NCBI GenBank assembly: GCA_964629655.1
Contig: CAZVQU010000001.1
Span: forward strand, 548,056 to 612,055
Length of the DNA: 64,000 nt
Direction: 5' to 3'
Origin: an uncultured Planctomycetia bacterium
Lineage (GTDB): Bacteria > Omnitrophota > Gorgyraeia > Duberdicusellales > 4484-171
The position numbers were made by a program, and so were the translations under genes. A model generated the notes under the pieces. It made no database searches. It worked only from the letters and a program-made list of their open reading frames with translations, and had not been told where the DNA came from. Below are positions 12,439 to 30,390 of this stretch, piece by piece. Numbering within the stretch: position 1 is the stretch's first letter; each line of letters opens with the position of its first letter.

Positions 12439-12446
12439 AAAATTCT

Positions 12447-13781
12447 TTATAAGTTCTTAATTTCCTGTGTAAGGGTGTTAACAGCTAATTTTAACTTAAC
12501 ATTCGCTTTTAAATCTTGGCGGATCTTCTTGCATGCGTAAAGAATAGTTGTATGGTGCTTAGCCCCGAAGAAGCCACCGATTTCAGGTAATGATAATTCC
12601 GTTAGCTCTCGGATTAGGTACATTGCTATTTGACGCGGCATAACCAGGGCCTTGTTTCTTTTCTTTTTCTTCAACTCCTCTCTGGATATCCCAAAGTGGT
12701 CCCCGACCCTAGATAAAATAGTCTCAGGGGTTATCCGCCGGTAGATCTCTTTTACCATATCTTTTAGAATATCTTTTGCTAGCTCTAAGCTAATCGGCTT
12801 ATTCTCTATAAGCGAGTAAGCAATGATCCTGACCAAGGCCCCCTCTAGCTCCCGGATGTTAGTGGTAATGTTTTCAGCAATAAAGTGAATAACGTCAGAG
12901 TCTATTTTGATTGGGTCCTTTTCCAGCTTCTTCTGTAAGATTGCCACCCTAGTTTCAAAGTCAGGAAGCTGGATGTCCACCACCAGACCCCAATTAAACC
13001 GGGAAGCCAGCCTTTCTTCAAGCTTAGCAATCTCTTTTGGCGGTTTATCCGAGGAGACGATAATCTGCTTATGGTGGTCGTATAAGACATTAAAGGTATG
13101 GAAAAATTCTTCTTGAGCAGCTTCCTTACCGGCAAGGAATTGGACATCGTCTATTAAGAGCACATCAATCTCTCTATACTTCTGGCGGAATTTTTCAGTG
13201 GAACGGTTGCGAATGGAAAAAATAAGTTCGTTAGTAAACTTTTCTGAGGAGGTGTACTTTACTTTCACTTGCTGGCCGCGAGAAAGAATCTGGTGAGCGA
13301 TTGCCTGCATAAGGTGGGTTTTGCCTAACCCCACTCCTCCATAAATAAAAAGAGGGTTGTACGATTTTCCGGGAGCGTTGGAGACAGCCAAAGAAGCAGC
13401 ATGGGCCATTCGGTTAGAAGCGCCCTCAATAAAATTATCAAAAGTAAAGCGAGGGTTCAGGCGCAGAGAGTCTTGGGGCTCTTCGCGGAAACTCTTTTGG
13501 ATTGTTTTAAAAACTTTGTTAGCTTTTCTTTTTAAGAGACTAGGGTTTACATCAAAGATAACTTCGAAGTCTCTCTGGGTAACGTCATTTAAGGCTTGCT
13601 TTATCTGAGGAAGGTGGCGGCTTTCAACCCAGTTTTTAAAAAAACTATCCGGTGCCTCCAGGACCAAAGATGAGTGGCTTATCTTTTTTAGGTTCAAGGG
13701 TGCGATCCAAGTATCGAAGGAGGTGTCACCTAAGATATTCTTAAGTTTCTCTTTGCAGGTTTGCCAAATTTGTTCTGCCAT
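12447..13781 (-). CDS. dnaA: chromosomal replication initiator DnaA
   Basis: 444 aa with Walker A GGVGLGKTHL, AAA+ motifs and a C-terminal DnaA-box-binding HTH. Confidence 0.95.
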   Translation of the reverse strand: MAEQIWQTCKEKLKNILGDTSFDTWIAPLNLKKISHSSLVLEAPDSFFKNWVESRHLPQIKQALNDVTQRDFEVIFDVNPSLLKRKANKVFKTIQKSFREEPQDSLRLNPRFTFDNFIEGASNRMAHAASLAVSNAPGKSYNPLFIYGGVGLGKTHLMQAIAHQILSRGQQVKVKYTSSEKFTNELIFSIRNRSTEKFRQKYREIDVLLIDDVQFLAGKEAAQEEFFHTFNVLYDHHKQIIVSSDKPPKEIAKLEERLASRFNWGLVVDIQLPDFETRVAILQKKLEKDPIKIDSDVIHFIAENITTNIRELEGALVRIIAYSLIENKPISLELAKDILKDMVKEIYRRITPETILSRVGDHFGISREELKKKKRNKALVMPRQIAMYLIRELTELSLPEIGGFFGAKHHTTILYACKKIRQDLKANVKLKLAVNTLTQEIKNL

Positions 13782-13791
13782 TTTAAAGCTG

Positions 13792-13819
13792 AGTTCACAA
13801 AATTCACAACTTATTCACA
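13792..13819. promoter_or_regulatory. cluster of three tandem DnaA-box-like 9-mers upstream of dnaA (oriC / dnaA promoter region)
   Basis: AGTTCACAA, AATTCACAA and TTATTCACA lie head-to-tail (the last has one mismatch to TTATCCACA). The region is AT-rich between the divergent dnaA and rpmH genes. Confidence 0.5.
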
Positions 13820-13915
13820 CTTGACCAGCGAGGCGAAAATAATTATACCGCAATAAAACTTCTTTGCAACATTTTTATAGTTGACACAAGGCCAATATAT
13901 GCTAAAATTTCACCT

Positions 13916-14053
13916 ATGAAAAAGAACTTAAAGACACCAACCAAGATAAAAGCCAAAAAAAAGAGAGGTTTTCGTGCCCGCAAGGCTACTGCCGGCGGCA
14001 GAAAAATCCTAAAGCGGAGAATGAAAAAGGGGCGGAAAAGGCTTACTATATGA
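13916..14053 (+). CDS. rpmH: 50S ribosomal protein L34
   Basis: 45 aa, MKKNLKTPTKIKAKKKRGFRARKATAGGRKILKRRMKKGRKRLTI, a near-canonical L34. It is below the ORF-track length cutoff. A TTGACA-17-TATGCT promoter precedes it. Confidence 0.85.
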   Translation: MKKNLKTPTKIKAKKKRGFRARKATAGGRKILKRRMKKGRKRLTI

Positions 14054-14256
14054 GGAGAGTAGCCCTTTTTCTTGTAGGGATATATCGCTTTGTTTCAAAG
14101 GGTTTCCCAGGCCACTGCGTTTATCTTCCAACTTGTTCAGAATATGCCCAGGAAGCTTTCTCAAAACACTCTTTTTTTAAGGCCTCAAAGCTTACCCTTT
14201 GTCGCATCCTCCGATGCAATCCTCTTATGAAAGGGGGGTTTGACCCTGTAAAGTAA
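14050..14256 (+). CDS. yidD: membrane protein insertion efficiency factor YidD
   Basis: 68 aa with YRF.S......C.Y.P.CS.Y..EA, typical of YidD. Its start overlaps the rpmH stop as ATGA. Confidence 0.85.
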   Translation: MRRVALFLVGIYRFVSKGFPGHCVYLPTCSEYAQEAFSKHSFFKASKLTLCRILRCNPLMKGGFDPVK

Positions 14257-14257
14257 T

Positions 14258-15709
14258 ATGGAAAAACGACTTTTTTTAGCATTTTCTATAACCCTTGTTT
14301 TTTTTATTGTTTATTCGCAGCTTGTTGCTAAGTTTGTTCCGCAACCTGTTCCGGTTCAAGGTGATAGCAAAGAACAAGGGGGACCGATGGGGTCCGGCCA
14401 GCTTCCCCCAGAGATTTCTCGAGACACCTCTCCTCTAGCTCTCGAAGAGAAGGAAGAGCTTGTAGATTTGCCACAAGCTTTTATAGGTAATTTTATTGTA
14501 ACATACTCTCCTGTAGGAGGTTACATAAAAAAAATTGCTATAGGCAATGAGGAATATGAGCTTCCTTTTCAAAATATAGGTTTTTTGCCCGAAGACCGCG
14601 ACAAGCAATTTACTCCTAATCTTGGAGATCGGAGTATTAAATTCAAAGGGCCAAGGGGCCAGAAAAAGGAATTCATCTTCAAGGATTACACCATGGAAAT
14701 AAGGCTTGACCCTCCTCCGGCAACGCCGCTAGTTTTATTCTCTAACTATTTGAGCTCCAGTATGTTAGACCAAAGATACCAAGAGATTTTCTACTCCCAA
14801 AATAGGGATTTGAAGAGAGCCTCGCCAAGAAAAATAAAGGATGATACCTATAATAATATAGAATTTGCCGGGGCCAGAGACAGATACCATTGTTTTTCTT
14901 TGCTTAAAGGAGCTTATGACTTAAGGTGGGTGAATGAGGACAAGAAAAGAATCCATCTGTACCTGTCTTCCCCTGGTGAGCAGACTTTCGTTTATATAGG
15001 TCCGCAAGTGGAAAAAGAGCTAGAACATTTTGGCCTGCAAGGGATTATGTACTATGGGTTCTTCCATGGCATAGCTGTGGTAATGATAAAACTTCTCTAT
15101 CTTTTGTACGGGCTGGTTAAGAACTGGGGTTGGAGTATTGTTTTGTTCTCGGCTTCAGTCTCTCTAATCCTCTTCCCGTTTACCTCCAAAAGTAGTAAGG
15201 CAATGCGGAAGATGCAGCAAATTCAACCCGAAATCGAGGAGTTAAAGACAAAGTACAAGGAAAATCCTCAAAAGCTCCAGAAAGAGACCATCGAGCTATA
15301 TCGCAAATACAAGATAAACCCTTTAGGGGGATGCTTGCCCTTATTGTTCCAAATTCCAGTAATTATGGCTTTTTATCAGGTTGTCTACCGGTTTGTAGAG
15401 CTTAAAGGGGCAAGTTTCTTGTGGATCAAGGATCTTTCTTCTCCAGACCGATTTGCAGCGCTGCCTTTTCCAGCCCCTGTAAATTATTTGAATCTCCTCC
15501 CTATTTTGCTGATGTGTATGGGAATTCTTCAGCAAAAAATAACCACCTCTTCCTCTACAGCTTCACAACAGAAAACTATGGGCTTATTCTTTGCTGTGTT
15601 TATCGGAGTTATCTTTTATGGATTTCCTGCAGCCCTAACTCTTTACTGGCTTATCCAGAACATATTTACCTTAACTTATCAAACACGCCTATCCCGGGCT
15701 CAAGCCTAA
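14258..15709 (+). CDS. yidC: membrane protein insertase YidC
   Basis: 483 aa with an N-terminal TM, a periplasmic domain and the conserved C-terminal 5-TM YidC/Oxa1 core (...LPLLFQIPV...). Confidence 0.9.
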   Translation: MEKRLFLAFSITLVFFIVYSQLVAKFVPQPVPVQGDSKEQGGPMGSGQLPPEISRDTSPLALEEKEELVDLPQAFIGNFIVTYSPVGGYIKKIAIGNEEYELPFQNIGFLPEDRDKQFTPNLGDRSIKFKGPRGQKKEFIFKDYTMEIRLDPPPATPLVLFSNYLSSSMLDQRYQEIFYSQNRDLKRASPRKIKDDTYNNIEFAGARDRYHCFSLLKGAYDLRWVNEDKKRIHLYLSSPGEQTFVYIGPQVEKELEHFGLQGIMYYGFFHGIAVVMIKLLYLLYGLVKNWGWSIVLFSASVSLILFPFTSKSSKAMRKMQQIQPEIEELKTKYKENPQKLQKETIELYRKYKINPLGGCLPLLFQIPVIMAFYQVVYRFVELKGASFLWIKDLSSPDRFAALPFPAPVNYLNLLPILLMCMGILQQKITTSSSTASQQKTMGLFFAVFIGVIFYGFPAALTLYWLIQNIFTLTYQTRLSRAQA

Positions 15710-15756: not shown

Positions 15757-15950
15757 GTTTCCACGTGAAAACGCAAAAAAGTGTGATAATACCTCACTTT
15801 GTCAGAGGTGGCAAATTAGGCAATGCCGTTTCCACGTGAAAACCCAACAATGCAGGCGATACCGTTTTCACGTGAAAACGCGAAAAAGCTCGATAATACC
15901 GCACTTTACAAGGGGTGGCAAATTAATCTCTGCCGTTTCCACGTGAAAAC
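15757..15950. repeat. two tandem ~107-bp direct repeats carrying four parS-like palindromes (GTTTYCACGTGAAAAC)
   Basis: Palindromes lie at 15757-15772, 15828-15843, 15864-15879 (perfect GTTTTCACGTGAAAAC) and 15935-15950. Spacing is 71/36/71 bp, with a conserved gataatacc.cacttt...ggtggcaaatta element in each unit. They sit directly upstream of parAB. Canonical parS is TGTTTCACGTGAAACA. Confidence 0.6.
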
Positions 15951-15960
15951 GCGAAAAAGC

Positions 15961-15989
15961 TTGACATTGCCACGCTTTCTATTAAAATG
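15961..15989 (+). promoter_or_regulatory. candidate sigma70-type promoter for parA (TTGACA-17-TAAAAT)
   Basis: TTGACA at 15961-15966 and TAAAAT at 15984-15989. It abuts the annotated ATG, so the true parA start may be the second Met (MGKVIGI..., 15996). Confidence 0.4.
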
Positions 15990-16787
15990 AACAATATGGG
16001 CAAGGTGATTGGTATTTGCAATCAAAAAGGCGGAACTGGCAAGACGACCACAGCCATTAATCTAAGCTCAATTTTGGGCCTAGCCGAGAAAAAGACCTTG
16101 CTTATAGATATGGATCCCCAGGGTAATGCTACTTCAGGGGTTGGGTTTAATAGCCAAGAGAAAAACTCAATTTATGATGTAATTATGGACAAGGCCAACT
16201 TGTCCGAAAGTATTTACCCCACTCAGTGGCCCAATCTGCATATTATTCCTTCGGACATTTCTCTTACTGGTGGAGAAATCGAGCTAGTCAATATTGAAAA
16301 TAGAGAGTTACGGCTAAGAGATAAGATCGAGGCCATAAAAGATGACTTTTCCTATATTATTATCGATGCGCCACCGTCTTTAAGTTTGCTTGCAGTAAAC
16401 GTTTTGGCTGCTTCTGACAGTTTGATTATCCCAATCCAATGTGAATACTATGCTTTGGAGGGAGTTTCTAAATTAGTTAATACCATAGAATTAGTCCGTG
16501 AAAGGATGAGTCCTTCTTTAGATATTGAAGGGGTGCTTCTTACCATGGGGGATTTCCGTACTCGTCTTACCTTACAAGTAATAGAGGAGGTACGAAATTT
16601 TTTCCAGAAGAAAACATTTAATATTATTGTGCCTCGGAACATCAGGCTTGCTGAGGCGCCTAGCTTTGGTAAACCAATATGCTTTTATGATCCAGCTTGC
16701 GTAGGCAACAAGGCCTACTTGAATTTAGCCCAGGAAGTATTAAAGGAAAAAATAGAAATTAATCAATTAGCAAAGACAAGGAGTTAA
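15987..16787 (+). CDS. parA: chromosome partitioning ATPase ParA/Soj
   Basis: Deviant Walker A KGGTGKTT, of the MinD/ParA family. 266 aa. Confidence 0.9.
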   Translation: MNNMGKVIGICNQKGGTGKTTTAINLSSILGLAEKKTLLIDMDPQGNATSGVGFNSQEKNSIYDVIMDKANLSESIYPTQWPNLHIIPSDISLTGGEIELVNIENRELRLRDKIEAIKDDFSYIIIDAPPSLSLLAVNVLAASDSLIIPIQCEYYALEGVSKLVNTIELVRERMSPSLDIEGVLLTMGDFRTRLTLQVIEEVRNFFQKKTFNIIVPRNIRLAEAPSFGKPICFYDPACVGNKAYLNLAQEVLKEKIEINQLAKTRS

Positions 16788-16788
16788 A

Positions 16789-17616
16789 ATGGAGAGAAAG
16801 GTTTTGGGCAGGGGGCTAGACGCGCTTATCCCTAAGAAGACAGCGGCGATGCTACCGCGAGAGTTCAGTTATTTACCGGTGAGCAAGGTAAGGCCAGCTA
16901 AGCGCCAACCTCGGCAAGAAGTAAGCAAGAAGGAATTAGGAGAGCTAACTCGGTCGATTAAAGAGAAGGGGTTTATCCAGCCGATTGTAGTAAGGCAAGT
17001 CAGTGGTGGAACCTATGAAATTGTGGCTGGAGAGAGAAGGTATCAGGCTGCTAAGTCATTGGGGCTCAAGGAGATACCAACAATTATTAAAGAGCTAGAT
17101 GATAAGGATGCCTTTATTTTGGCAATCGTTGAGAACCTCCAGCGTCAGGATTTAAATCCAATAGAAGAAGCCCAAGCCTTTAAGCGGCTGTTTGAAGAGT
17201 TTAAATTTTCCTTAGAGGACATTGCTCAATTTGTTAGTAAAGACAAGACCACGGTAGTTAACACCTTGCGGTTGCTCAGGCTGCCTGATAAGATAAAGCA
17301 AGCTTTGCAGGAGGGGGTAATCACTCGGACTCAGGCCCGGACAATCTTAGGGGTGGAAAAACTCCAAGCCCAAGAAAAGCTATTCCACCAAATTCTAAGA
17401 GATGGTCTCTCAGTTAGAGAGATAGAAAAAAAAGTTCGGCTGGTATCAAAGAAGAAGAGAAAAGCAGATCCTTTTATCATTGAAGTAGAGGAGAGGTTTC
17501 AAAAATTACTGGGGACCAAAGTTAAGGTCTTTAACAAAAGGAATAATCGTGGTAGAATTGTTGTCGAATATTATTCCCTGGAGGACTTAGAGAGAATCAT
17601 TAAGAGACTGGGGTAA
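16789..17616 (+). CDS. parB: chromosome partitioning protein ParB/Spo0J
   Basis: 275 aa with the ParB N-terminal box (GERRYQAAK) and an HTH. It lies immediately downstream of parA. Confidence 0.9.
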   Translation: MERKVLGRGLDALIPKKTAAMLPREFSYLPVSKVRPAKRQPRQEVSKKELGELTRSIKEKGFIQPIVVRQVSGGTYEIVAGERRYQAAKSLGLKEIPTIIKELDDKDAFILAIVENLQRQDLNPIEEAQAFKRLFEEFKFSLEDIAQFVSKDKTTVVNTLRLLRLPDKIKQALQEGVITRTQARTILGVEKLQAQEKLFHQILRDGLSVREIEKKVRLVSKKKRKADPFIIEVEERFQKLLGTKVKVFNKRNNRGRIVVEYYSLEDLERIIKRLG

Positions 17617-17652
17617 AATCTCGTAAGTTTTTAGAAGGAGGTTTGTAAGCGA

Positions 17653-18159
17653 ATGGAAAACGAAGCTACCTTAGTTATTATTAAACCCGATGGGCTGAAA
17701 AAATCCCTTACCGGGAATATCTTAAGTAGGCTTTCTGAGGGTAAGTTGAAAATAATCGGAGCCAAAGTAATAAAAGTAGATATTAAGTTAGCCCATGAAC
17801 ACTATCACCATCTTCAGAAAGAACCGTTTTATCCGGAATTAACCAAATATATTACCGGCCAGCTTCACGGCGAGAACAGGGTTATGGCCCTTGTCTATTG
17901 GGGTGAGGATGCTATAAAAAAAGTTAGAGCTATAGCCGGCGAGACTAATCCTGAGCAAGCCGATCCGATAAGTATAAGGGGTGCCTACGGAAGGATTCTA
18001 ACAACTGGTTTGTTTGAGAATGCAATTCATGCCTCAAGCAGCATCGAGGAAGCTGAGAGGGAGATAAAACTTTGGTTTGAGCCAGATGAGATTGTTTATG
18101 CGCTTTATCCCTCAAAAAAAGTAGCCGAAGGAAATGGCAAAAAGGAGATTTGGGCATGA
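17653..18159 (+). CDS. ndk: nucleoside diphosphate kinase
   Basis: Starts TLVIIKPDG... The NDK active-site His region is present. 168 aa, with a C-terminal extension. Confidence 0.8.
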   Translation: MENEATLVIIKPDGLKKSLTGNILSRLSEGKLKIIGAKVIKVDIKLAHEHYHHLQKEPFYPELTKYITGQLHGENRVMALVYWGEDAIKKVRAIAGETNPEQADPISIRGAYGRILTTGLFENAIHASSSIEEAEREIKLWFEPDEIVYALYPSKKVAEGNGKKEIWA

Positions 18160-18938
18160 GATCAATGACTGCTTATGCTTCTGCCCAAAGAAGCAGAGGG
18201 CTTCAAACTGTTCAGGTAATTCTGCGCTCCCTAAATTTTAAATATCTGGATGTCTGCATTCATAACTTACCAGTTGAGGATATCTTGGTAGAGGAGAAGG
18301 TTAAACGAGAGATTAAAAAGAAGGTTCATCGCGGGAAGGTTGAAGTTTTTATCTTCTCAGCTAAACCACAGTCTAAGAAAATATATGTTGATGAAAGGGT
18401 AGTTTCCGGTTATATCTCCCAGATAAAAGCTTTAGGGAAAAAGCATAGTTTAAAGGCGGAGATAAACATAAGTGATATTTTGAGCTTGCCTCAAGCAATA
18501 TCTTGGAGACACAGAGGCAAGATTGATGAAGGGTTGATGCTGCCGGTGATAGATGAAGCCCTGAGCAGGTTCGTAAGATTTAAAGAAAAAGAAGGCCGGG
18601 CTATAAAGAATGAGATCAAAGATAACCTTGCCAAGCTAAAGAGTAATGTAGAGAAGATCAAAAAACAGAAACCCAAGGTTAGTAAGATCGAAAATGGGAA
18701 AGAGGATATCGACGAAGAGCTTTCTCTGACATTATTTTACATAAGCAAAATAGAGAATAAGATTAACTCTAAAAAATGGACACCTCAGGGGAGGGCAATA
18801 GATTTTTTAACCCAAGAGATTTTAAGAGAGCTGAGCGCTGCTGCCAGCAAAACCAAAAAGAAAAACTTAGCCTTATTGATAATTGAAGGGAAGAATTATC
18901 TGGAAAGAATAAAAGAACAGGCGCAGAATATAGAATGA
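18150..18938 (+). CDS. yicC: YicC-family protein
   Basis: N-terminal (M)RSMTAYA... and a C-terminal DUF1732-like region. The gene order yicC-gmk-rpoZ is conserved. Confidence 0.7.
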   Translation: MGMRSMTAYASAQRSRGLQTVQVILRSLNFKYLDVCIHNLPVEDILVEEKVKREIKKKVHRGKVEVFIFSAKPQSKKIYVDERVVSGYISQIKALGKKHSLKAEINISDILSLPQAISWRHRGKIDEGLMLPVIDEALSRFVRFKEKEGRAIKNEIKDNLAKLKSNVEKIKKQKPKVSKIENGKEDIDEELSLTLFYISKIENKINSKKWTPQGRAIDFLTQEILRELSAAASKTKKKNLALLIIEGKNYLERIKEQAQNIE

Positions 18939-19507
18939 AAAATCCAGCAGTTTTTGTTATTTCGGGACCAGGAGGGGCAGGCAAGACTACTATTGTTGAG
19001 AAACTATTCTTATGCGAGAAGATAAAAAAAGATTTCATAAAAGGAATAACAATCACCACTCGAAAGAGGCGGCCTCAGGAAAAAGAGGGTAAGGATTATT
19101 TCTTTATTGAGAAGGAAGAGTTCTTAAGATTAAAGAAGAGGAAGTTTTTTCTCGAAAGCCAGGAGGTTTTAGAGAACCACTATGGGACGCCAAAGATTCT
19201 TTATGCTTTAGCCAAAAGGGAAGGCAAAAGCCTTGTTTTGTGTATCGACGTTAAGGGGGGGATGTGTCTTAAAAAAGACCCAAAGGTTAAGAAGGTAACT
19301 ACCATTTTTCTTGTTGCTCCATCAGAAAAAGAGCTTTACCGGCGGATGAAAAAGAGGGACGAGAAAAAAGGGGTAATCCAAAAAAGAGTGAAGCTTGCAA
19401 AAAAAGAGTTGCAATTTTCCAAGCTCTACGATTACCTAGTAACAAATCGGAATATAAAAGATACCCTAAAGGAATTAGAAGGAATTATTCTCAACGCAAG
19501 CAACTAG
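18935..19507 (+). CDS. gmk: guanylate kinase
   Basis: P-loop GPGGAGKTT. 190 aa. Confidence 0.9.
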   Translation: MKNPAVFVISGPGGAGKTTIVEKLFLCEKIKKDFIKGITITTRKRRPQEKEGKDYFFIEKEEFLRLKKRKFFLESQEVLENHYGTPKILYALAKREGKSLVLCIDVKGGMCLKKDPKVKKVTTIFLVAPSEKELYRRMKKRDEKKGVIQKRVKLAKKELQFSKLYDYLVTNRNIKDTLKELEGIILNASN

Positions 19508-19542
19508 ATTATATTTAACACGATTAATTTTCGGAGGTTAAA

Positions 19543-19746
19543 ATGTACGAAGTAAATATTCCTTTAGAGAAACTTTTAGAAGCAAGTGAGGGTTCTATTT
19601 ACAAGATAACTATTTTAGCTGCGAAACGAGCAATTACTTTAACCGATGGGGAGAAACCTTTGGTCGAGAAACCTGGTGAGAAGGTTTTGGATAATGCTAT
19701 AAGGGAAATCAAGAGCGGAAAGATAAAGGTGAAAAGTAAAAAATAG
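19543..19746 (+). CDS. rpoZ: DNA-directed RNA polymerase subunit omega
   Basis: 67 aa containing ...KITILAAKRA..., the conserved omega-subunit motif. It lies downstream of gmk. Confidence 0.8.
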   Translation: MYEVNIPLEKLLEASEGSIYKITILAAKRAITLTDGEKPLVEKPGEKVLDNAIREIKSGKIKVKSKK

Positions 19747-19798
19747 CTGTCTTCGGGAATCTTTAAAGAAGAAAAGTAAAGAAATGATATCAAACAGT

Positions 19799-19873
19799 GG
19801 CGTGGTAGCCAAGTGGTAAGGCAGCGGTCTGCAAAACCGCTACGCGCCGGTTCAAATCCGGCCCACGCCTCCA
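19799..19873 (+). tRNA. tRNA-Cys (GCA)
   Basis: Cloverleaf with acceptor GGCGTGG / CCACGCC, anticodon loop CUGCAAA, T-loop GGTTCAAATCC. CCA is encoded. Confidence 0.85.
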
Positions 19874-19900
19874 AAATAAAAATCGTAAGCAATAAAATAT

Positions 19901-19986
19901 GCCGGGGTGTTGGAATTGGCAGACAACACAGACTTAAAATCTGTTGTTCCGTAAGGAACGTGCGGGTTCGAGTCCCGCCTCCGGCA
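19901..19986 (+). tRNA. tRNA-Leu (TAA), type II long variable arm
   Basis: Acceptor GCCGGGG / CTCCGGC, anticodon loop CUUAAAA, long variable arm, T-loop GGTTCGAGTCC. Confidence 0.85.
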
Positions 19987-20002
19987 TATTTTTATTTAGA
20001 GC

Positions 20003-20076
20003 GGGCGATTAGCTCAGTTGGCTAGAGTACTTCCTTGACATGGAAGGGGTCACAGGTTCAAGTCCTGTATCGCCCA
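20003..20076 (+). tRNA. tRNA-Val (GAC)
   Basis: Acceptor GGGCGAT / ATCGCCC, D-arm TAGCTCAGTTGG, anticodon loop UUGACAU, T-loop GGTTCAAGTCC. Confidence 0.85.
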
Positions 20077-20161
20077 TGGTTTTATATTATTTAGTGGAGG
20101 AAGAGGCACCAAAAGTTTATTTGACAGCACAAGAAAAGTTATCTATAATCTTACATCTGTC

Positions 20162-20240
20162 GGGGTTGTCGATTAGCCTGGCTTAAGTCCCCTGCCTGTC
20201 ACGCAGGTGATCGTGGGTTCAAATCCCATCGACCCCGCCA
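20162..20240 (+). tRNA. tRNA-Asp (GTC)
   Basis: Acceptor GGGGTTG / CGACCCC, anticodon stem-loop CCTGC-CTGTCAC-GCAGG, T-loop GGGTTCAAATCCC, CCA encoded. The D-loop is slightly long. Confidence 0.75.
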
Positions 20241-21911
20241 TTGAAACCAATTCGAACTCTTGTTCTTCTCATCGAGAAGGGCAAGAGTTTTTGCTTTTAT
20301 ATGGGCCAGATAATAAGGCTTAAACTTCCCTTCCTGAGCATTAACCACCGAATAGAAGTCATTATCAGAATCCAACACAGGCTCAAGTGCTATCGGGGAT
20401 AGGAGCTCTTTTAAGGCAAGCCCTGCAGAGGTGGCATTCTTGCTAAGGGTTTCACGTAAACGTCTTAAACGGTGTCTTATCCATTCTGCAGGAGGGGATT
20501 TAAAGGTGTTCTGCTTCTGGAATTCTAGAGATTTTATCTCTTCTGTTAACAACTCAAATCTCGATTCACAGTGCTTTAATGCCTCGGATACGGCCTTTGA
20601 AAAGTTACCTAACTTAATGTAATTAAGGTAGTTTTGCATCTCCAAAGAAAGCTTATCATATTGGGCTCTTTTCTTTTTAGTAGTCTCAGGGTTGGTGTTT
20701 AATCTTTTTGCTATTTCGGTTTCTAGATTCTTGTAAATGTAGCTTACATTATCGGGAGTTAAGATCTTTTCTTGCAATGCAGCGAGGATGATTTTTTCTA
20801 TGCGTTTACGGGATACCAGTAATTTATTAGTACAGGTTTTACGCCGAAAATTATAACAACCGTAGTAACCGCCGCCTTTTCCGCTGACAAGAACAATTGG
20901 CCCGTTACAACAGTGGCATTTCATGGTTCTTGAAAAAAGATGAGTTGGGGCACAATGGACATAACTTCTTTGTTTTTGGCCGCTCGCTCTTGCCTTTTGA
21001 GATAGAGGATAGGCGCCTACCATTTTGGACCATCTTTCTTGGGTTTTATTCCAAACATCCTGCTCAATAATTATTAAATCTTTTCTGGGTGTGGATAAAT
21101 GTTCTTTTTCGGGGCGTGAAACAATTTTCTTTTTTCCGGTTAAAGGATCTCTTACAGTTTTGGTTGTTTTCCATATCCATATACCGATATACTTTTTGTT
21201 CTGTAAGATTCTACGTAAACTGGAAATATTCCAACCGCCGGAAAGGCCGCGTTTAGTAGGGATTTTGCCCTCATTGAGGGCTGCCGCTATTTTCCGTAAG
21301 CTTTTACCTCTGGAGAATTCAGTGAATATTCTTTTTACTATATCGGCTTGCTCAGGATTTATTTTATGAACCATCCCATCATGTTTTGCTTCGCCTCTTT
21401 TACCAACCCTTAGCTCGCCGACCGGTTCGGTAAAATAACCAAATACATTCTCGCCTACACTAAAGCCGCGGATTTTCTGGCCTTCTAGTCCACGCATAGT
21501 TTTCTTTTTGAGGTCATCAAGATAAAGCTCATTCATTAGCCCGCGCAGATGAATGCCTAATTTTGAATTATCGTCATCAGTAGAAATACCGTCGGAAACA
21601 GAAGTAATCTTTATCTGCAGATAGTTGAATTTTAGAACCAAAGTTAACATCTGATGGTTGCTTCGCGATATCCGAGATAAGTCGTCTACAATTACAGTAT
21701 CAAATTCTTTATTCTCAGCAGCTTTCTCCAAAGCCTGCAACCCGGGCCGGTCAACAATAGAACCCGAGATTGCCTCATCAATGTAGATATGCTCATCTTC
21801 CACAAGAAAGTTATTTTTGCTGGCATAGTCTTTGCATACGCGTATTTGATCGTCAATACTCCTAGCGCTTTGGTTTTCAGAGGAGTAGCGGGCATATATG
21901 GCAACTTTCAT
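20199..21911 (-). mobile_element. large serine recombinase (resolvase catalytic domain + recombinase domain + zinc-ribbon/coiled-coil); its 3' end overlaps the tRNA-Asp 3' end
   Basis: 570 aa. The N-terminus MKVAIYARYSSENQ...DDQ is the serine-recombinase catalytic motif. A C-terminal Cys cluster (C..C..CYNFRRKTC) follows. The last ~14 codons are encoded inside tRNA-Asp on the opposite strand. Confidence 0.85.
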
Positions 21912-21952
21912 TTTTGGCCTCTCAATGACTCCGTCAACGGCGGAGGGATTGA

Positions 21953-22009
21953 TCCCGCCGAGTGCGGGTAAATTATCACAGAAAATTTACCCGCTATATA
22001 GCGAGGCGG
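21953..22009. repeat. nested imperfect palindrome (CCCGCC..GCGGGTAAATT-9bp-AATTTACCCGC..GGCGGG) upstream of the recombinase gene
   Basis: A perfect 11-bp inverted repeat GCGGGTAAATT / AATTTACCCGC is separated by atcacagaa and flanked by an outer CCCGCC / GGCGGG. It lies 40-100 bp upstream of the recombinase start codon. Confidence 0.5.
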
Positions 22010-22022
22010 GACACATTTGTTA

Positions 22023-22199
22023 ATATTATTTTTCATTTGAGAATACATCATGGTTCTTTTTGGCTATCTCTATATATTCCTCAGCGAGAATAGAGGAGAT
22101 TACATCCAGCAGATTTTTGACAGCAGGATTGTCAGGCCAATTAAAATTTATTGGCTGAATAGGTGATTTAATATGTTTAGTTAACTGTTTAATGGCCAT
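22023..22199 (-). CDS. small hypothetical ORF (58 aa) upstream of and co-oriented with the recombinase
   Basis: MAIKQLTKHIKSPIQPINFNWPDNPAVKNLLDVISSILAEEYIEIAKKNHDVFSNEK. It is below the ORF-track cutoff and has no recognisable motif. Confidence 0.2.
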
Positions 22200-22305
22200 A
22201 TTTAAAATACTTGATTCTTTTTAAAGACGAGCTAAAATATCATTAAATTAAAAGCAATAAAGTAATAGCAATCTATTAATACAATATTAGCAATATATTG
22301 ATAGT

Positions 22306-22530
22306 TTGTCAAGCAAAAAAATAGGAGTTTTTATGCTCTCAGCAAACATTAAAAAACTAAGAAAAAGACACCACTTGTCTCAAGAACAACTCGCCCAAAA
22401 GGCAGGAATTACCTACAGCACTCTTATCAAGATAGAATCCGGGTCAAACAAAAACCCAACCCTGGAGACCTTAACAAAACTGGCTACTGTATTTAAAATC
22501 AAGATAGATGAGTTGGTGAAAAAGTTATAA
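22306..22530 (+). CDS. XRE-family helix-turn-helix transcriptional regulator
   Basis: 74 aa with the HTH_XRE core LSQEQLAQKAGITYSTLIKIESG. Confidence 0.7.
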   Translation: MSSKKIGVFMLSANIKKLRKRHHLSQEQLAQKAGITYSTLIKIESGSNKNPTLETLTKLATVFKIKIDELVKKL

Positions 22531-22559
22531 AAGGTCACTCTGCATTTCTTGAGAGAGCA

Positions 22560-23195
22560 ATGAAAAGGATAAGTTCAGAAAGGGAGTTGTTAAGTAAGTG
22601 TTTGTCGAATGACAAGCATGCATGGGATGAATTTGTCCAGCGTTATACTAAATTAATTTTTAGCTTAATATATCGAACCCTTGAGTTCAAAGGGTATCGG
22701 ATAGAAAAGGATCTTGTGAGCGATCTTCACCAAGATGTTTTTTTGTCCGTCCTAAAGGATGATTATGCGAAATTAAGAAGATTCAAATGGAAGAATGGAT
22801 GTTCTCTGGCTACGTGGATTGGTGTCATAACAAGAAATTTAGTCTTAAATTTCATTAGAAGCAATTCAAAACAAAAGTATCTAACAAAATCTCTCGATGA
22901 ATCTTTTGGCAATGAAAACGAAAAACAGGCAACGCTTTTAGATGTAATCAAAAACCCCGCCCCAAACGCTAAAGAGGTAATGAATGAATCTGAAATGATT
23001 GATTTGCTCAATGCTTCTATAGAAAAACTTGAGATTACAGAAAGAGTAATCCTCGATTTATTCTATGCTCAAACCTTACCGCTTGAAGAAATAGGGAGAG
23101 TTTTAAACAAATCTGAAGATGCTGTATTTATGCAGAAAAAGAGAGTTCTTGCAAAATTACAAGAAATAATGAAAAAAGGCGTTGGTTTTAGATAA
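22560..23195 (+). CDS. ECF (sigma-70 family) RNA polymerase sigma factor
   Basis: 211 aa with sigma region 2 (DEFVQRYTKLIFSLIYR...DLHQDVFLSVL) and region 4 HTH (LPLEEIGRVLNKSEDAVFMQKKRVLAKL). Confidence 0.8.
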   Translation: MKRISSERELLSKCLSNDKHAWDEFVQRYTKLIFSLIYRTLEFKGYRIEKDLVSDLHQDVFLSVLKDDYAKLRRFKWKNGCSLATWIGVITRNLVLNFIRSNSKQKYLTKSLDESFGNENEKQATLLDVIKNPAPNAKEVMNESEMIDLLNASIEKLEITERVILDLFYAQTLPLEEIGRVLNKSEDAVFMQKKRVLAKLQEIMKKGVGFR

Positions 23196-23226
23196 TTTAG
23201 CTGTCTATTGATTACGGGGTGATAAT

Positions 23227-23952
23227 ATGAAAAATAAATTTGAATCTATTCTGAAAAAAGTTCTTAATGCTGTGAAAAAACGAAAAAATAGCAATACTGG
23301 AAAAAGGTGCTTAACTGACGAAGATTTAACCGTCATTGTTGAGGGAAAAACTTCAGAGGTTGAACGGGATAAGGTATTTAGCCATATCCTATCTTGCCAA
23401 AATTGCGCTTTGTTACTGAAAGAGCATTTATTAATCATGGGTGATTTAGATAAAAAAGGCATGCTAGAGACTCCTCAAGAATTAATTCAAGCCGCGATGG
23501 ATCTAGTCGGTCCAGGTATAGCATCTAATATGTTAGAAGTTGTTTTAAATCTTAAGGAGAAGGTAATAGAATTAGTAAAAGCCACGGGTGATGTTCTAAT
23601 CGGGCCGGAATTAATCCCTGTGCCGGTTTTGAGAAGCCAAGGGAAAGACGACAAATTCGAGAACAAGGTGAAAATTGTCAAAGCTTTTGATAATGTTTTG
23701 ATAGAAGTAGTTGTAGAGAGAAAAAAGCCAAATATCTGTGATATCGAGTTAAGATTAACGGAAAAGGATTTGAAGAGAAAGGCAGAAGGTTTACGAGTTA
23801 CGTTAATGAAAGACAATAAAGAAATAGAGTCATCTTTGATAGATGAAGGTAAAATTATCTTTAGGGAAATTAAACCAGATAGATATAAAATTTCTATCAT
23901 GAAAGAGGGGAAACAACTAGGCGCAGTCGATATTTCGATGAATTTAACTTGA
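23227..23952 (+). CDS. putative zinc-finger (ZAS, zf-HC2) anti-sigma factor, soluble
   Basis: 241 aa with the H-x3-C-x2-C motif (HILSCQNC) near the N-terminus and no TM segment. It lies immediately downstream of the ECF sigma gene and 12 nt upstream of the CHAT gene. Confidence 0.55.
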   Translation: MKNKFESILKKVLNAVKKRKNSNTGKRCLTDEDLTVIVEGKTSEVERDKVFSHILSCQNCALLLKEHLLIMGDLDKKGMLETPQELIQAAMDLVGPGIASNMLEVVLNLKEKVIELVKATGDVLIGPELIPVPVLRSQGKDDKFENKVKIVKAFDNVLIEVVVERKKPNICDIELRLTEKDLKRKAEGLRVTLMKDNKEIESSLIDEGKIIFREIKPDRYKISIMKEGKQLGAVDISMNLT

Positions 23953-23964
23953 TAAGCCGCTATT

Positions 23965-26900
23965 ATGGTTACTTTAGTCGTTGAAATTAGCAAAGAAGGT
24001 GACCGTCTGAAAATGGGTGCTTTTGAAAGGTCAAAAGGCCTAGATGTAACTTTAAAACACTATAACGATTGTTACGTCTCAGATGAAAAAATTGAAAATC
24101 TTTGTGGAGAGATAACCTACCTTTTTAATAAGGCAAATCGACAAGGAAAAGTAGGCGAAAACTTTGCTAGTGATTTAAAGAAGATTTGCCGAACCCTTTT
24201 CGACCAACTACTTACCTTTGAAGTCAAGAAAGCAATAAAGAACACTGAGGCAAAGTTCTTACTGATCTCTATTGATGAAAAATTAGTTCAGATTCCTTGG
24301 GAGCTTCTTCATGATGGAGATGAGTTTTTATGTATCCGTTTTGCAATGGGTAGAAGCGTAAAGACTAAGCAAAAGAATTATGGAAGTCGCTACCGTAGCG
24401 TGAGCAGTCCCACAAAAATGTTGATTGTTGCAAATCCGACAGGAGATTTGAATTCTGCTTACGAAGAAGGTATATATATCCGCAATGAATTAGATAAAAG
24501 AAAAGGTAAGGTAAGAGTATTTTCAAAGACAGAAGATGTAAGTATTGACTTTGTAAGAAAGAATATCAGAGATTACGATATCTTTCATTTTGCTGGCCAT
24601 GCGGAATATAATTCAATAAATCCTTCTGAAAGTGGCTGGATTTTAAAAGATGGTAAATTTACTGCTAAGGAAATCGTAGAACTCGGAGCAACATCCCCTT
24701 TACCCTCAATAATTTTTTCTAATGCTTGTCAATCTGGCAAGACAACCGAGTGGAAAGTAGGTAAAGAATTCGAAGATGAAATATACGGGTTAGCTAATGC
24801 TTTTCTTCTAGCAGGGATTCGTCATTATATAGGCACATTTTGGAGAGTTTTGGACGAACCGTGTTTGTGCTTTGCTAACGAATTTTATAAGAATGTTACC
24901 GATGGCTTACCAATTGGAGAAGCTATACGATTATCTAGAATACAACTTATTAATAAGTATGGATATTCTTCAATTGTCTGGTCAAGCTATATGCTTTATG
25001 GAGATCCCGCAATCAATCTGTTCTTTGTCTCGACAGTCAAAAAACCATTAAAAGAGAGAATTTTTCAAAGGCAGATCATAATTTTGTCTATAATATTGGG
25101 TTCAATTATTGGGACAGGCTTATCAGGGTTTCTTCTCTATCGAAACTATTTCTCACGGCCAATTGCTCAAGAAAGCCCCGCGTGGGCACATAGAAACATT
25201 GTTTTGATTATGCCTTTCGAAAACTTGAACAGGGATAAAGAAACTGATTGGATGGGTCTAGGGATTGCTAATGTCGTGGCTACAAAATTAAACAAATTAG
25301 ACAAAATAAATGTAGTCGATAGGTTTCAGGCTGAGCTAATATGGAAAGAAATTAAAAAGGCCGACTACGTTGATAAAGAAAGCGCTTTGAAGATAGCTAA
25401 GATTTTAGGTGCAGACCGGATTATTCTTGGATCGTTTCAGAAAATTGATGATGATATACGAATATCAGCTCAGCTGTTCAATGTTAAAGACGATTCCTTG
25501 ATTGGGTCAGTTGATGCCAGTGATTCATATAGCAATTTCTTTTCTTTGGAAGATACCGTGGCTTTAAGCATAGGGGATAAATTGAATATTAAAATAAGTA
25601 AGCGGGAAAGATCTGAGTTGAGCAAGTTTTTGCCTACAGAAAACATTAGTGCATTTGAATTCTTAACCAAATCTATCTCGGCGTTTACTGAGAGAGATAT
25701 AAATAAAGCAGTAGATTTCTGCAAAAAAGCTCTAGAATTAGACCCTAATTATATTCAAGCAAATACAAATATGGGGTTATTGTATGATTCATTAGGCAAT
25801 TTAGACCTGGCTAAAGTTTATTACGAGGAAGCATTAGAATTAACCAAGAAGAGCGAAGATAAAAATTTATTTGTAACGGCCTATTTTAATTTAGGTAAAC
25901 TTCTTGGACGAACAGGTCAATGGAAGGAAGGAATGGAGCTTCAAAGAAAGGCACTAAAAATTGCAGGAAATCTAAGTAATCAGCAAGTTTATGCTTCGAT
26001 TTTGTACAATATAGGACTATCTTATATTGCAAATAACGAGTTTAATGAGGCTAAAAAGTCATTATTTGAAAGCAAAGCTATTTACGAGACATTGAATAAT
26101 CAATTTGGTTTGGCAGCTATTCATCTGGGATTAGGAATCTACTACTCTTACAACCAAGAAGCAGATTTTGATAAGGCTGAGAAGTATTATGATGAAGCAA
26201 TAAGGATTTCCGAGAATCTAAACTCTAAAGAAGGACTTGCTAAAATTTATTCTATTTTGGGTGGACATTATCATACAAGAGGAGAGTGGGAGAAAGGCAG
26301 TATTTACTTTGTTAAATCTTTGAAGGTGAGTCAAGAAATTAATGACAGTTGGTCAGAGAATCTAGCCTATTGTGGTCTTGCTAAGAGCTATGAAGAAAAA
26401 GGAGAGTTTGGTAATGCTCTAGAATATTACAAAAAAAGTCTAAAACTGACCGAAGAGGCAGGTAATCGCACGGGACACAAAAATACTCTATATTCGATAA
26501 GTTCGTTATATTTAAGACAATTGCGTAATGATATGGGATTAAAGTATTTGAATATGTTAGTTGAAGAGGCAAAAAAAGATAAAGATGAACGTAACCAGAT
26601 ATTAGGGTTACGGTGGATAGCTAGTACTTATTATTCAATGGGAAGATACGAGAAAGCTATGGAAGGATATAATAAAGCTTTAACTTTTAATGAGGCGCTC
26701 AATAGCGACAGAAATAGTTTAATGCAGATATATCTTGGTTTAGGAAAATGTGTTGGTCAATTAGGTAATAATACCGAAAGCGAAAAGTATTTTGAATTAG
26801 CTAAAAAAGAAGTACTTGGTGTGAAGGAATATATTACACTGGGATATATTTATCAACAAATTGGAACATTTTATGAGAATAAAGGCAGAATGGATAGAGC

Positions 26901-29694: not shown

Positions 29695-29739
29695 TAATTT
29701 GATATAAATCATTTTTGTACAAGGAGTTAGGTACTTATA

Positions 29740-29770
29740 GGGCACATACTAAATGTGCCCTATTTTTTTG
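29740..29770 (+). terminator. intrinsic terminator after the CHAT gene
   Basis: Hairpin GGGCACAT-actaa-ATGTGCCC followed by TATTTTTTT. Confidence 0.7.
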
Positions 29771-29820
29771 TTGGTTTTGCGATCTTGTGTTGTCTATTGT
29801 TAGTGAAGGAGGTGATAAGA

Positions 29821-30372: not shown

Positions 30373-30390
30373 TATATAAATATAATAAAA

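Follow-up and report, generated by a model that had tools for sequence, protein, structure and literature searches.

A large serine recombinase (LSR) gene that ends inside a tRNA-Asp gene, next to a run of accessory genes, raises the question of whether the enzyme, the tRNA and the accessory genes belong to one element, and where this element begins and ends. The question was addressed in a window of 64,000 nucleotides, the whole stretch of DNA that was analysed, and all positions refer to it. Taking the locus as a whole, the best explanation and a highly probable one is that the LSR itself placed a 14.3 kb island in the end of tRNA-Asp, as judged from the features collected in Table 1 and from related loci.

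The recombinase gene and its tRNA-Asp target

The LSR is an intact gene with the catalytic Ser. The search for domains showed a Resolvase domain (PF00239) at residues 3-149 with an E-value of 1.4e-28, a Recombinase domain (PF07508) with an E-value of 1.9e-22 and a zinc ribbon (Zn_ribbon_recom, PF13408) whose 28.9 bits exceeded the cut-off of 25.3. Alignment of 34 homologues showed that R8 and S10 of the motif YARYSS were invariant, and so were D76, R80 and R83 and the zinc-ribbon cysteines C332, C335, C352 and C360. The first-pass annotation had called the gene a large serine recombinase and had made this call depend on the catalytic Ser; the three domains, the presence of S10 and the intact ORF bear it out. 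Residues ~390-500 were charged and leucine-rich, a length sufficient, on sequence, for a coiled-coil insertion. Such an insertion in the LSR zinc-ribbon domain governs directionality, and serine integrases work without host factors. Relatives of the LSR in IMG/VR reached 34% identity at most.

The 3' end of the LSR overlapped tRNA-Asp by 42 nt, in agreement with the read-through into the complementary strand of the tRNA that had been described before. The last 13 codons and the stop (WRGRWDLNPRSPA*) corresponded, in reverse complement, to the T-arm, the acceptor strand and the CCA of the tRNA, and residues 1-557 were island-encoded. At least 102 of the 120 best homologue protein clusters also read into tRNA or tmRNA 3'-end antisense, so the overlap is not a product of chance. 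Within tRNA-Asp, nt 1-69 were host DNA (B arm), nt 70-71 were the crossover dinucleotide common to host and island, and nt 72-76 (C-G-CCA) were island DNA. The crossover at tRNA positions 70-71 was placed by symmetry only, and formally it could lie at any position of the core CCCGCCATT. The earlier suggestion that the element carries the tRNA 3' end held in substance, but what is carried is just nt 72-76 plus a new terminator.

The hairpin and T-run of this terminator sit within the LSR codons TLALLDEKNKSS. The hairpin was kept in 73 family loci with a median dG of -27.6 and a z of -5.2. In the hairpin alignment 84.7% of the pair cells were paired, compared to 42-53% in a slid-partner control, and 8 pairs had compensatory changes. 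Conservation was scored by pair counts on the consensus fold, as the minimum-free-energy fold absorbs the U-tract, and RNAalifold run on the hairpin loci returned no structure.

Table 1. Features of the tRNA-Asp locus, in window coordinates
Feature	Position	Strand	Remarks
tRNA-Asp(GTC), integration target	20162-20240	plus	ARAGORN; Rfam tRNA 51.2 bits, E 1.6e-8
LSR, integrated/truncated form	20199-21911	minus	570 aa
attL	20216-20258	.	centred on CC 20234-20235
attL B motif	20216-20224		GGTTCAAAT (T-loop)
attL B inner arm	20225-20233		
Whole integrated island	20236-34518	.	14,283 bp; core-to-core distance 34517 - 20234
attL P' inner arm	20236-20249		
attL P' motif	20250-20258		ATTCGAACT; LSR SNW codons
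Intrinsic terminator for tRNA-Asp, island-borne	20254-20300	plus	17-bp hairpin + T-run; terminator scan
57-aa ORF just upstream of LSR	22026-22199	minus	candidate accessory/directionality factor
XRE-type HTH regulator, divergent	22306-22530	plus	PF01381, E 4.8e-18
Variable cargo block	22560-34081	plus	Pfam, NCBIfam, PADLOC
ECF sigma factor	22560-23195	plus	cargo
241-aa ORF	23227-23952	plus	cargo
CHAT-TPR protein	23965-29694	plus	cargo; 1909 aa
107-aa ORF	30049-30372	plus	cargo
TPR protein	30557-31819	plus	cargo; 420 aa
DUF2254-like membrane protein	31829-34081	plus	cargo; 750 aa
Detached LSR 3' segment	34314-34517	minus	67 codons + stop; HTH-like C-terminal extension
attR	34494-34545	.	centred on CC 34517-34518
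attR P motif	34494-34502		GGTTCGAAT
attR P inner arm	34503-34516		
attR B' arm	from 34519		displaced native tRNA end CGCCA, then host DNA TTTGTTTTATTATCC...

Borders and cargo of the island

Both junctions had the core CCCGCCATT, at 20234 and 34517, and the repeat common to the two island ends was 7-9 nt long. The displaced tRNA 3' end, CCCGCCA(TT), was found at 34517-34525 beside an inverted copy of the LSR 3' end; the repeat of the tRNA-Asp 3' end that the first-pass annotation anticipated at the far boundary is therefore present in this short form only. A search for a long copy (26-mer, ≤3 mismatches) found none, because the shared core is just 9 nt. An inverted repeat (20242-20257 and 34495-34510) was 94% complementary, and one arm (GGTTCGAATTGGTT.CA) was present inverted at both island ends. 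The attP, reconstructed as window 34494-34516 + CC + 20236-20258, was a palindromic sequence of 48 bp within the LSR reading frame, and symmetry held at 10 of 14 inner positions. The joined island ends (attP junction) read GGTTGCAGGCGCGCCCGCCATTGAAACCAATTCG and the attB junction read CATCGACCCCGCCATTTGTTTTATTATCC. The motifs were separated by N30 in the attP of the window and of L088, a contig of P0037 which carries attP as GGTTCGAAT-N30-ATTCGAACC, and by N25 in attL. In LSR attB half-sites the zinc-ribbon motif lies 5 bp further inward than in attP half-sites (PMC3783163), and the N30 and N25 spacings fit this known geometry. No T-loop-like motif was seen in the B' arm. The central dinucleotide was CC here and TC in tRNA-Ser loci.

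Comparison with relatives showed the empty site that had been proposed. Four metagenome contigs with an empty attB (L097, L108, L109 and L112) read ...CGACCCCGCCA/cttgttttac..., and in them the counterparts of window 15929-20240 and 34517-34595 were adjacent, which confirmed the island limits. The counterparts of 35266-36422 and then 37920-41756 followed in order with 80-83% identity. Logan contigs retrieved through exact matches to flank proteins gave no empty site, as they ended in the tRNA cluster or measured 1 kb. The genes for GGDEF, DUF212, YkuD and accA (from 37920) were collinear core in relatives, and the ParA-like gene and tRNA-Met also lay within stretches collinear in island-free relatives with ~80% identity. 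The GC content was 0.30-0.37 over 22.0-34.4 kb versus about 0.41 in the flanks. The first-pass annotation had thus set the left edge at tRNA-Asp correctly, but its ~19 kb region up to accA did not stand: the right end is at 34518, core does not resume only at accA but already with GGDEF, DUF212 and YkuD, and the deviation in GC expected over 20.2-39.7 kb was a drop that ended at 34.4 kb.

The 57-aa, 107-aa and 241-aa ORFs had no match in PADLOC, NCBIfam or Pfam. The PADLOC scan for anti-phage defence among the cargo gave generic XRE-HTH and TPR models only, which left the defence cargo suggested earlier without a match of its own. No Phage_integrase was present among the island ORFs scanned, the serine enzyme being the sole recombinase, and the cargo of sigma factor, CHAT-TPR, TPR and membrane proteins was not that of a prophage. 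Islands of this kind measured 4-14 kb and were without transfer genes. The 57-aa ORF was found just upstream of the LSR in most family loci across phyla (tblastn, 75 hits), and was also predicted by gene callers in L005, L088 and L089. The XRE regulator lay within a conserved integration module with 89% nucleotide identity to the related occupied locus L008. The cargo beyond this module was unrelated, and the window's cargo was missing from L008 and from a further occupied locus, L009. Between the cargo and the detached LSR segment, 34101-34313 was a non-coding stretch that is conserved.

The split integrase gene and its family

Joining of the island ends (21911->20236 + 34516->34317) gave one open frame of 626 aa; its alignment with P0037 (625 aa, attP form) spanned 624 aa, with 62% identity. 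Since attP lies within the LSR gene and the joined frame is open, integration detaches a tail of 67 aa and adds 13 tRNA-antisense codons. The detached 3' segment lacked a start codon upstream of its last 26 codons, and the tail had a dN/dS of 0.22-0.32, measured over 62-66 codons only. A tail that is in frame, conserved and without its own start would be under selection essentially only via the full-length enzyme. The tail profile matched HTH domains with marginal E-values (IS21 IstA 8q4d, E 0.0012; Pfam Sigma70_r4_2, E 0.0011). The same reconstruction in L052, L056, L060, L063 and L065 from Chlamydiae and Verrucomicrobia gave open ORFs of 611-621 aa with the conserved tail. The extension is not universal, because in 9 of the 120 homologue clusters the frame stopped 15-20 codons after an attP-like junction without an HTH. 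When the 67-aa tail served as query in a word-based protein search, just 6 close hits came up, too few to count full-length forms, and the sole match in the window to the attP-type tail peptide motif D.VRTFY was an irrelevant one in parA.

The LSR is one of a large, hitherto undescribed family whose targets are the ends of tRNA and tmRNA genes, and this family was surveyed in 72 species-representative loci containing the LSR 3' end. A target gene was adjoined in 59 of them (48 tRNA-Ser, 9 tmRNA and 2 tRNA-Asp), and the offset was fixed at 18-21 nt, with 45 loci having 18 nt. The family occurs in Omnitrophota, Chlamydiae, Verrucomicrobia, Binatia and Methylomirabilota, and relatives from several phyla that sit at tRNA-Ser and tmRNA genes had the split gene and the att layout as well. 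The tRNA overlap remarked on in the first-pass annotation is real, but its nature as a family-wide att feature and the splitting of the integrase gene had both been missed.

No circular junction was found for this LSR subclade. An attP-like junction in L120 was rejected as proof of a circle, because there a complete element and a remnant already in place stand in tandem. The junction in L048 was rejected as attP, its second motif being in direct orientation, and L088, which has the attP form, was not demonstrably circular.

In the proposed course of events, the LSR is predicted to bind the T-loop-like motif GGTTCGAAT, which would be recognised within the T-arm of the tRNA (B arm) and in its mimics in the two arms of attP; the mimics are read as GSNW and PIRT in translation. 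The strands would be exchanged at tRNA positions 70-71. The P' arm of the island would then rebuild tRNA nt 72-76 and bring the new terminator hairpin written in LSR codons. The full-length, HTH-bearing LSR would be made only from the excised circle, and integration would leave a truncated LSR with a meaningless tRNA-antisense tail. Together with the 57-aa ORF and the XRE regulator, this isoform switch probably contributes to the control of direction or expression; here the LSR is presumed to be active and its C-terminal switch to have a role. A further proposal, made tentatively and as a possibility only, is that the enzymes form an undescribed LSR lineage with the T-loop/acceptor end as attB half-site and with a recombination-dependent isoform switch, in which the full-length form from the circle integrates and the integrated form is inert or excises only with the 57-aa partner. 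If this is true, directionality would partly be set by the position of attP within the integrase gene, a principle not known for serine integrases.

Alternative explanations and known systems

Two alternatives concern the borders. A single accessory island of ~19 kb, from tRNA-Asp to before accA (20.2-39.7 kb), could account for the variable content at 34.6-37.9 kb, where a transglutaminase-like gene was missing from L097 and a 49-nt tRNA-Met repeat bracketed 807 nt. This is very improbable: the interval 34.5-37.9 kb holds two further small independent indels, copies of the att arm and the core lie at 34494-34525, the empty-site contigs join 20240 to 34517, the stretches 35266-36422 and 37920-41756 are collinear in island-free relatives, and the GC content recovers at 34.4 kb. 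It is even harder to believe that tRNA-Asp came in with the island as a whole gene, promoter and terminator included, the true junction then being ahead of the tRNA. Directly before tRNA-Asp (20121-20149) there is indeed a sigma-70 promoter that matches the consensus perfectly, and several loci of the family had 5' pieces of their target tRNA in front of the full-length gene. However, these pieces were of mixed nature, namely scaffolding artefacts at N-runs, a GIY-YIG insertion and a pseudo-tRNA. In addition, the empty-site relatives have the same tRNA-Asp (97% identity in L097, L109 and L112) after tRNA-Val, in the same place as here, and L095 matched window 20107-20242 at 92%.

The other two concern the enzyme. 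An LSR that is fixed, domesticated or decaying at tRNA-Asp in this genus, and immobile now, would agree with its position, which is shared by three related species (window, L008 and L009), with the missing circular form and with the existence of remnants such as L105. It is nevertheless unlikely, as the ORF and both att sites are intact, with every catalytic residue present and the att sites symmetric. Moreover, the integrase module was 86-89% identical in nucleotides between species against 75-80% for the flanking core, with unrelated cargo. Empty, remnant (L105, L102 and L121), full (L008) and tandem (L120) states of the site coexist among close relatives, and these forms can be taken as signs of turnover. 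More weight, though still well short of an even chance, is given to the tRNA overlap and the gene split being neutral by-products of the place of attP, with either C-terminus working equally. In line with this, the tails after the crossover were unconstrained and varied with the tRNA, 21 of the 120 homologue clusters stopped right after the acceptor antisense, the 9 clusters with attP-like junctions lacked the HTH extension, and a C-terminal HTH is not needed by LSRs generally (general family knowledge; PMC3783163). Against it stand the in-frame extension of 60-67 aa, conserved from Omnitrophota to Chlamydiae and Verrucomicrobia, its dN/dS and, in the window, its lack of a start codon.

tRNA and tmRNA genes are, stated or implied, classic landing sites of tyrosine integrases (PMC4383910), and a large LSR survey never mentioned tRNA (PMC10083194). 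A conserved, phylum-spanning serine-integrase family at tRNA-Ser, tmRNA and tRNA-Asp ends fills that gap, by way of T-loop mimicry. It also explains a recurrent annotation oddity, namely recombinase ORFs ending in ...WRRGRDSNPR, and the split gene offers a testable new coupling of enzyme form to integration state. An LSR with a near-universal tRNA attB half-site could be of use in engineering as a broad-host landing tool. Finally, mobile elements of Omnitrophota are hardly described, and a common small island type now has exact borders.

Among known systems, the phage and ICE integrases of Listeria A118/LI, phiC31, Bxb1 and SPbeta SprA have the same domain order of resolvase, recombinase and zinc ribbon, a short pseudo-palindromic attP, an attB outer motif 5 bp inward and no need of long attP-attB homology. 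They differ in that their target is a protein gene or intergenic site, whereas here it is a tRNA or tmRNA 3' end, with att arms that resemble the T-loop, an attP within the integrase ORF and an extra C-terminal HTH-like extension that is removed by integration. The best NCBIfam matches, SCCmec CcrB (127.2 bits, curated cut-off 900) and Anabaena XisF (83.7 bits, curated cut-off 375), are also LSRs of non-phage islands or excision elements, and Ccr enzymes likewise use the 3' end of a conserved gene, rlmH, as their integration site, but the LSR scored far below these family cut-offs and the targets are not the same. Integrases of the SSV1 type in archaea have attP inside the int gene, a complete gene only in the excised circle and a tRNA target. 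These are tyrosine recombinases of archaeal viruses with the gene split in two large parts, whereas here 557 of 626 codons stay together and a short tail takes the place of just a C-terminal domain. Integration-dependent immunity in mycobacteriophages, reportedly described by Broussard and colleagues in 2013 with attP inside the repressor gene, is alike in that integration alters the C-terminus, and hence the properties, of a phage-encoded protein. There, however, the repressor is altered by a tyrosine integrase, and here it is the integrase itself that is altered.

The tycheposons of Prochlorococcus are small islands with cargo that occupy tRNA genes, tRNA-Ser(TGA) among them. In the survey that describes them a large serine recombinase was present in a minority of the elements, and the tRNA-associated integrases were tyrosine recombinases (474 of 501 tycheposons); att mimicry or a split serine integrase is not described for them (10.1101/2020.12.28.424599). 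Islander or P4-type islands (PMC4383910) share the insertion at a tRNA or tmRNA 3' end, the restored gene, the displaced end at the far boundary, the variable cargo and the arrays and remnants at the same tDNA. Insertion in the target, gene restoration and the displaced fragment were all found in the present island, but in place of their tyrosine integrase it has a serine enzyme, its shared repeat is 7-9 nt compared to the 49 nt of the tRNA-Met repeat in the window, and the part of the tRNA that it restores is limited to nt 72-76, with a terminator added.

Recombinase gene and its overlap with tRNA-Asp

Domain searches of the integrase at the left end of the island produced matches with Resolvase (E 1.4e-28), Recombinase (E 1.9e-22) and Zn_ribbon_recom (28.9 bits, over the cut-off). 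Alignment of 34 homologues showed that R8 and S10 of the catalytic motif YAR-Y-S, together with D76, R80 and R83, were invariant. By every feature tested, the predicted enzyme is a large serine recombinase (LSR), and we infer its activity from sequence; NCBIfam comparison placed it outside the named CcrB and XisF families. The final 13 codons and the stop (WRGRWDLNPRSPA, stop) were the antisense of the CCA, discriminator, acceptor strand and T-arm of tRNA-Asp, an overlap of 42 nt. The first-pass annotation had the LSR ending inside tRNA-Asp, which was borne out by the domains, the ARAGORN and Rfam tRNA calls and this antisense overlap.

Features of the integrase and its surroundings (window positions)
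Feature	Position	Strand	Remarks
tRNA-Asp(GTC)	20162-20240	plus	ARAGORN; Rfam 51.2 bits
LSR ORF	20199-21911	minus	570 aa; three LSR domains
17-bp hairpin and T-run	20254-20300		terminator scan; within LSR codons TLALLDEKNKSS, just past the P'-supplied tRNA end
57-aa ORF	22026-22199	minus	just upstream of the integrase
Detached LSR tail	34317-34517	minus	last 67 residues of the 626-aa frame, ARLQPIRTLSEIKV...LLGMSYESIAKSLNIDKTTARKACNYKEG

A promoter matching the sigma-70 consensus at 12/12 positions (TTGACA-17-TATAAT, 20121-20149) was found 12 nt upstream of tRNA-Asp, which comes after a cluster of three tRNAs despite this promoter of its own. The promoter region was host DNA, 92% identical in the related locus L095. 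The cumulative GC-skew minimum was at about 12-13 kb (region ~12400-14300), and gene orientation flipped between a 444-aa ORF (12447-13781, minus) and yidC (14258-15709, plus), with parA and parB just after; together these are consistent with a replication origin near the island.

Island borders and att sites

The first-pass annotation suggested comparison with related genomes to find an empty site. When JGI metagenome contigs were scanned for the 3' end of tRNA-Asp, 31 loci came up, and in four of them (L097, L108, L109 and L112) an uninterrupted tRNA-Asp (attB) led without a break into cttgttttactatctggctgatttttcaaaag...catccttgactttttatc, which is homologous to window 34524-34595. Blastn showed that window 15929-20240 and 34517-34595 were contiguous in these four, and that window 35266-36422 and then 37920-41756 occurred in the same order in empty-site contigs at 80-83% identity. 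Since these contigs join tRNA-Asp to 34517, the insertion was delimited to 14,283 bp (20236-34518), which coincided with a GC trough of 0.30-0.37 compared to ~0.41 in the flanks. Of the ~19 kb accessory region proposed earlier, the left edge at tRNA-Asp stood while the right edge and the size did not; the GGDEF, DUF212 and YkuD genes beyond 37.9 kb, previously counted as accessory, are core, as window 37920-41756 was collinear in empty-site contigs. The suggestion that the element carries the tRNA 3' end held, with the P' arm of the island providing C72-G73-CCA, identical in tRNA-Ser and tRNA-Asp.

Occupied tRNA-Asp sites were found in L094, L107, L116, L119 and L120, and remnants with both ends but without integrase and cargo in L102, L105 and L121; L120 had a full element in tandem with an ends-only remnant. 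Core-flank identities of L105 equalled those of L008, the locus of Candidatus Susulua stagnicola, and L105 is therefore probably the same species. Relative to Ca. S. stagnicola, the window was 87-89% identical in DNA over the integrase and XRE regulator and 75-80% over the core flanks, and the cargo was unrelated. Decayed LSR islands at the tRNA-Asp site were observed in L105 (rc 7691-8660), L102, L121 and L117. In L105 the island ends were kept, integrase and cargo were deleted and the core was mutated to CCTGCCATA; next to the remnant came the end of another element (~130 nt) and a 3' fragment of tRNA-Asp (16 nt). The same tRNA has therefore served at least two kinds of element.

At the left end (attL), the (K)SSNW codons of the LSR (AGTTCGAATTGG) resembled a T-loop and formed an inverted repeat with the true T-loop on the opposite strand, 25 nt apart. 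A second, inverted copy of this arm was present at 34494-34512 (GGTTCGAATTGGTTGCAGG) in the right end (attR), beyond which came CGCG-CCCGCCATT and, after it, T-rich sequence; a repeat search showed 94% complementarity between 20242-20257 and 34495-34510. CCCGCCATT was common to both junctions (20234-20242 and 34517-34525) and took in the final seven tRNA bases. When the left-hand side of the 34.5 kb junction was fused to the right-hand side of the 20.2 kb junction, attP was reconstructed as a 48-bp pseudo-palindrome, GGTTCGAAT-N30-ATTCGAACT, symmetrical at 10 of 14 inner positions around a central CC. The exchanged dinucleotide, placed by symmetry, would be CC at 20234-20235 (tRNA positions 70-71), and the crossover could lie anywhere within the nine shared bases. 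The zinc-ribbon motif of serine integrases is 5 bp closer to the centre in attB than in attP half-sites (Rutherford et al., PMC3783163), a shift which corresponds exactly to the motif spacing of 30 nt in the reconstructed attP versus 25 nt in attL. The palindrome was translated on both sides, as GSNW (GGTTCGAATTGG) and PIRT (CCAATTCGAACC), and it is probably the DNA site that keeps these residues so extremely conserved.

Just outside attR, a 39-nt direct repeat (34557-34595 and 35258-35296, 92%) with promoter-like TTGACT...TATCGAAATAT bracketed a transglutaminase-like gene (~34600-35250). This gene was missing from empty-site relatives, where the promoter region runs directly to a ParA-like gene, and the stretch is a separate small indel. 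Further right, the 3' part of tRNA-Met (anticodon loop through CCA, plus TTTTT) was repeated perfectly and in direct orientation over 49 nt (36377-36425 and 37184-37232), on either side of 807 nt with a 104-aa ORF (36795-37109). This looks like a mini-island or what remains of a classic tyrosine-type tDNA insertion that has lost its integrase; L097 and L108 differed from the window across it. The second repeat copy accounts for a weak 'tmRNA' Rfam match at 37137-37230.

Split integrase gene and putative tRNA terminator

Reading the LSR from its start through the reconstructed attP produced a single open frame of 626 aa, which aligned end to end with the homologue P0037 (625 aa; 62% over 624 aa), on whose contig (L088) the attP form is found. 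Chlamydiae/Verrucomicrobia tRNA-Ser loci rejoined likewise (L052, L056, L060, L063 and L065) also read as open frames, 611-621 aa long, and their tail was conserved. The tail segment in the window had no ATG, GTG or TTG ahead of its final 26 codons, and tail dN/dS against two relatives was 0.22-0.32 over few codons. The tail profile produced helix-turn-helix (HTH) matches at marginal E-values with IS21 IstA (0.0012), Pfam Sigma70_r4_2 (0.0011), gamma-delta resolvase (0.48), Sleeping Beauty and VraR. We infer a role for a C-terminal switch between a full-length form with the HTH-like tail in the excised circle and the truncated form in the integrated state. Sequence comparison underlies the exact borders of the island, the four att forms and the split of the gene. 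Non-coding DNA at 34101-34313, which separates the detached tail from the last of the cargo genes, was 82-83% conserved in L120 and L105 and included motif ACTTAGGAATCCAGATTTTCTT, with two occurrences in L105; regulation or accessory binding at the island end is a possible role.

The hairpin past the tRNA end had a median dG of -27.6 kcal/mol and a z of -5.2 against shuffles (73 loci). Among 66 distinct aligned sequences, 84.7% of pair cells were paired, compared to 42-53% with the partner slid, and eight pairs had changes on both sides; the structure scored was taken from the consensus, a derivation that biases these counts in its favour. The hairpin is read as a putative replacement terminator for a tRNA severed by integration from its own downstream DNA.

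Family, cargo and comparison with known systems

A search over 5.8 billion proteins produced >800 homologues, with the best 120 clusters at 60-100% identity across 98-100% of the query. Nearly all of these 120 had the C-terminus ...KGSNW..W-RR..(D/E)SNP... and diverged afterwards. By pattern, the continuation was tRNA-like antisense in 57 of the 120, tmRNA-like antisense (WW...ESNP, from CCACCA) in 24, a stop directly after the acceptor antisense in 21 and a different 'attP-like' tail in nine; WW in tmRNA-targeting members is due to A73 there. A longer tail matching the HTH-like pattern LG[MLI][ST] was found in three, of which P0037 was the sole one examined closely. About nine of the 120 clusters (L123 = P0076, L089 = P0006 and L048 are examples) ended in ...WRC.CDEVRTFY... 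and a stop, without a neighbouring tRNA. Their junctions resembled attP-type arms (VRT = GTTCGAACC) with a frame that ends prematurely; they probably represent tandem arrays, or else a subfamily that lacks the HTH tail. Genes downstream in L123 were restriction-modification methyltransferases, a STAND ATPase and a PLD nuclease.

A survey of 80 loci in species-representative genomes, mainly Omnitrophota with some Chlamydiae, Verrucomicrobia, Binatia and Methylomirabilota, had Ca. S. stagnicola as nearest LSR relative (91%). The LSR 3' end was included in 72 loci and had an RNA gene antisense to it in 59: tRNA-Ser in 48 (anticodons TGA 25, GGA 8, GCT 8, CGA 7), tmRNA in nine and tRNA-Asp in two. 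The distance from the GSNW codons to the RNA 3' end was 18 nt in 45 of these 59 loci and 19-21 nt in the remaining 14. Overlap of the LSR with a tRNA or tmRNA 3' end is, judged by these C-termini and loci, a family trait.

Upstream of the target tRNA-Ser(GGA) of L010 (~11753-12273), ~70 nt of upstream sequence and tRNA nt 1-20 were duplicated around a ~400-nt insert encoding a small GIY-YIG-like protein (MDKIIYSEPWFLYIVEC...); a homing-type insertion at the 5' end of the tRNA may account for this. In L069 (11573-11730, two copies) and L086 (11860-11895), a pseudo-tRNA-Ser with the first 36 nt of the gene, a 39-nt anticodon-loop insert and a degenerate 3' half lay immediately upstream of the functional tRNA-Ser(TGA).

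The 57-aa ORF occupied the same position in most loci of the family, in different phyla (75 tblastn matches), and is, speculatively, a candidate directionality factor; a divergent XRE regulator came next. Window cargo comprised an ECF sigma factor, a 241-aa ORF, a 1909-aa CHAT-TPR protein, a TPR protein and a DUF2254-like membrane protein, for which PADLOC produced generic matches only. Cargo of other members was unrelated (DUF4145, ORF6N, methyltransferases). Members with both ends known spanned ~4-14 kb, no relative above 34% identity was found in the viral collection, and the family elements are small non-phage islands.

Genes of SSV-type archaeal tyrosine integrases are known to be partitioned by integration, and in integration-dependent immunity a repressor gene is partitioned in this way. 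No paper linking Omnitrophota with serine recombinases was found in the literature searched; such an element may have been described in other papers. A large LSR survey (PMC10083194) never mentioned tRNA, and in tycheposons the integrases associated with tRNA are of the tyrosine type (10.1101/2020.12.28.424599). The hallmark of tyrosine-integrase islands is that they insert into tDNA and restore the gene (PMC4383910); the island in the window behaves alike but differs by its serine enzyme and 9-nt core.
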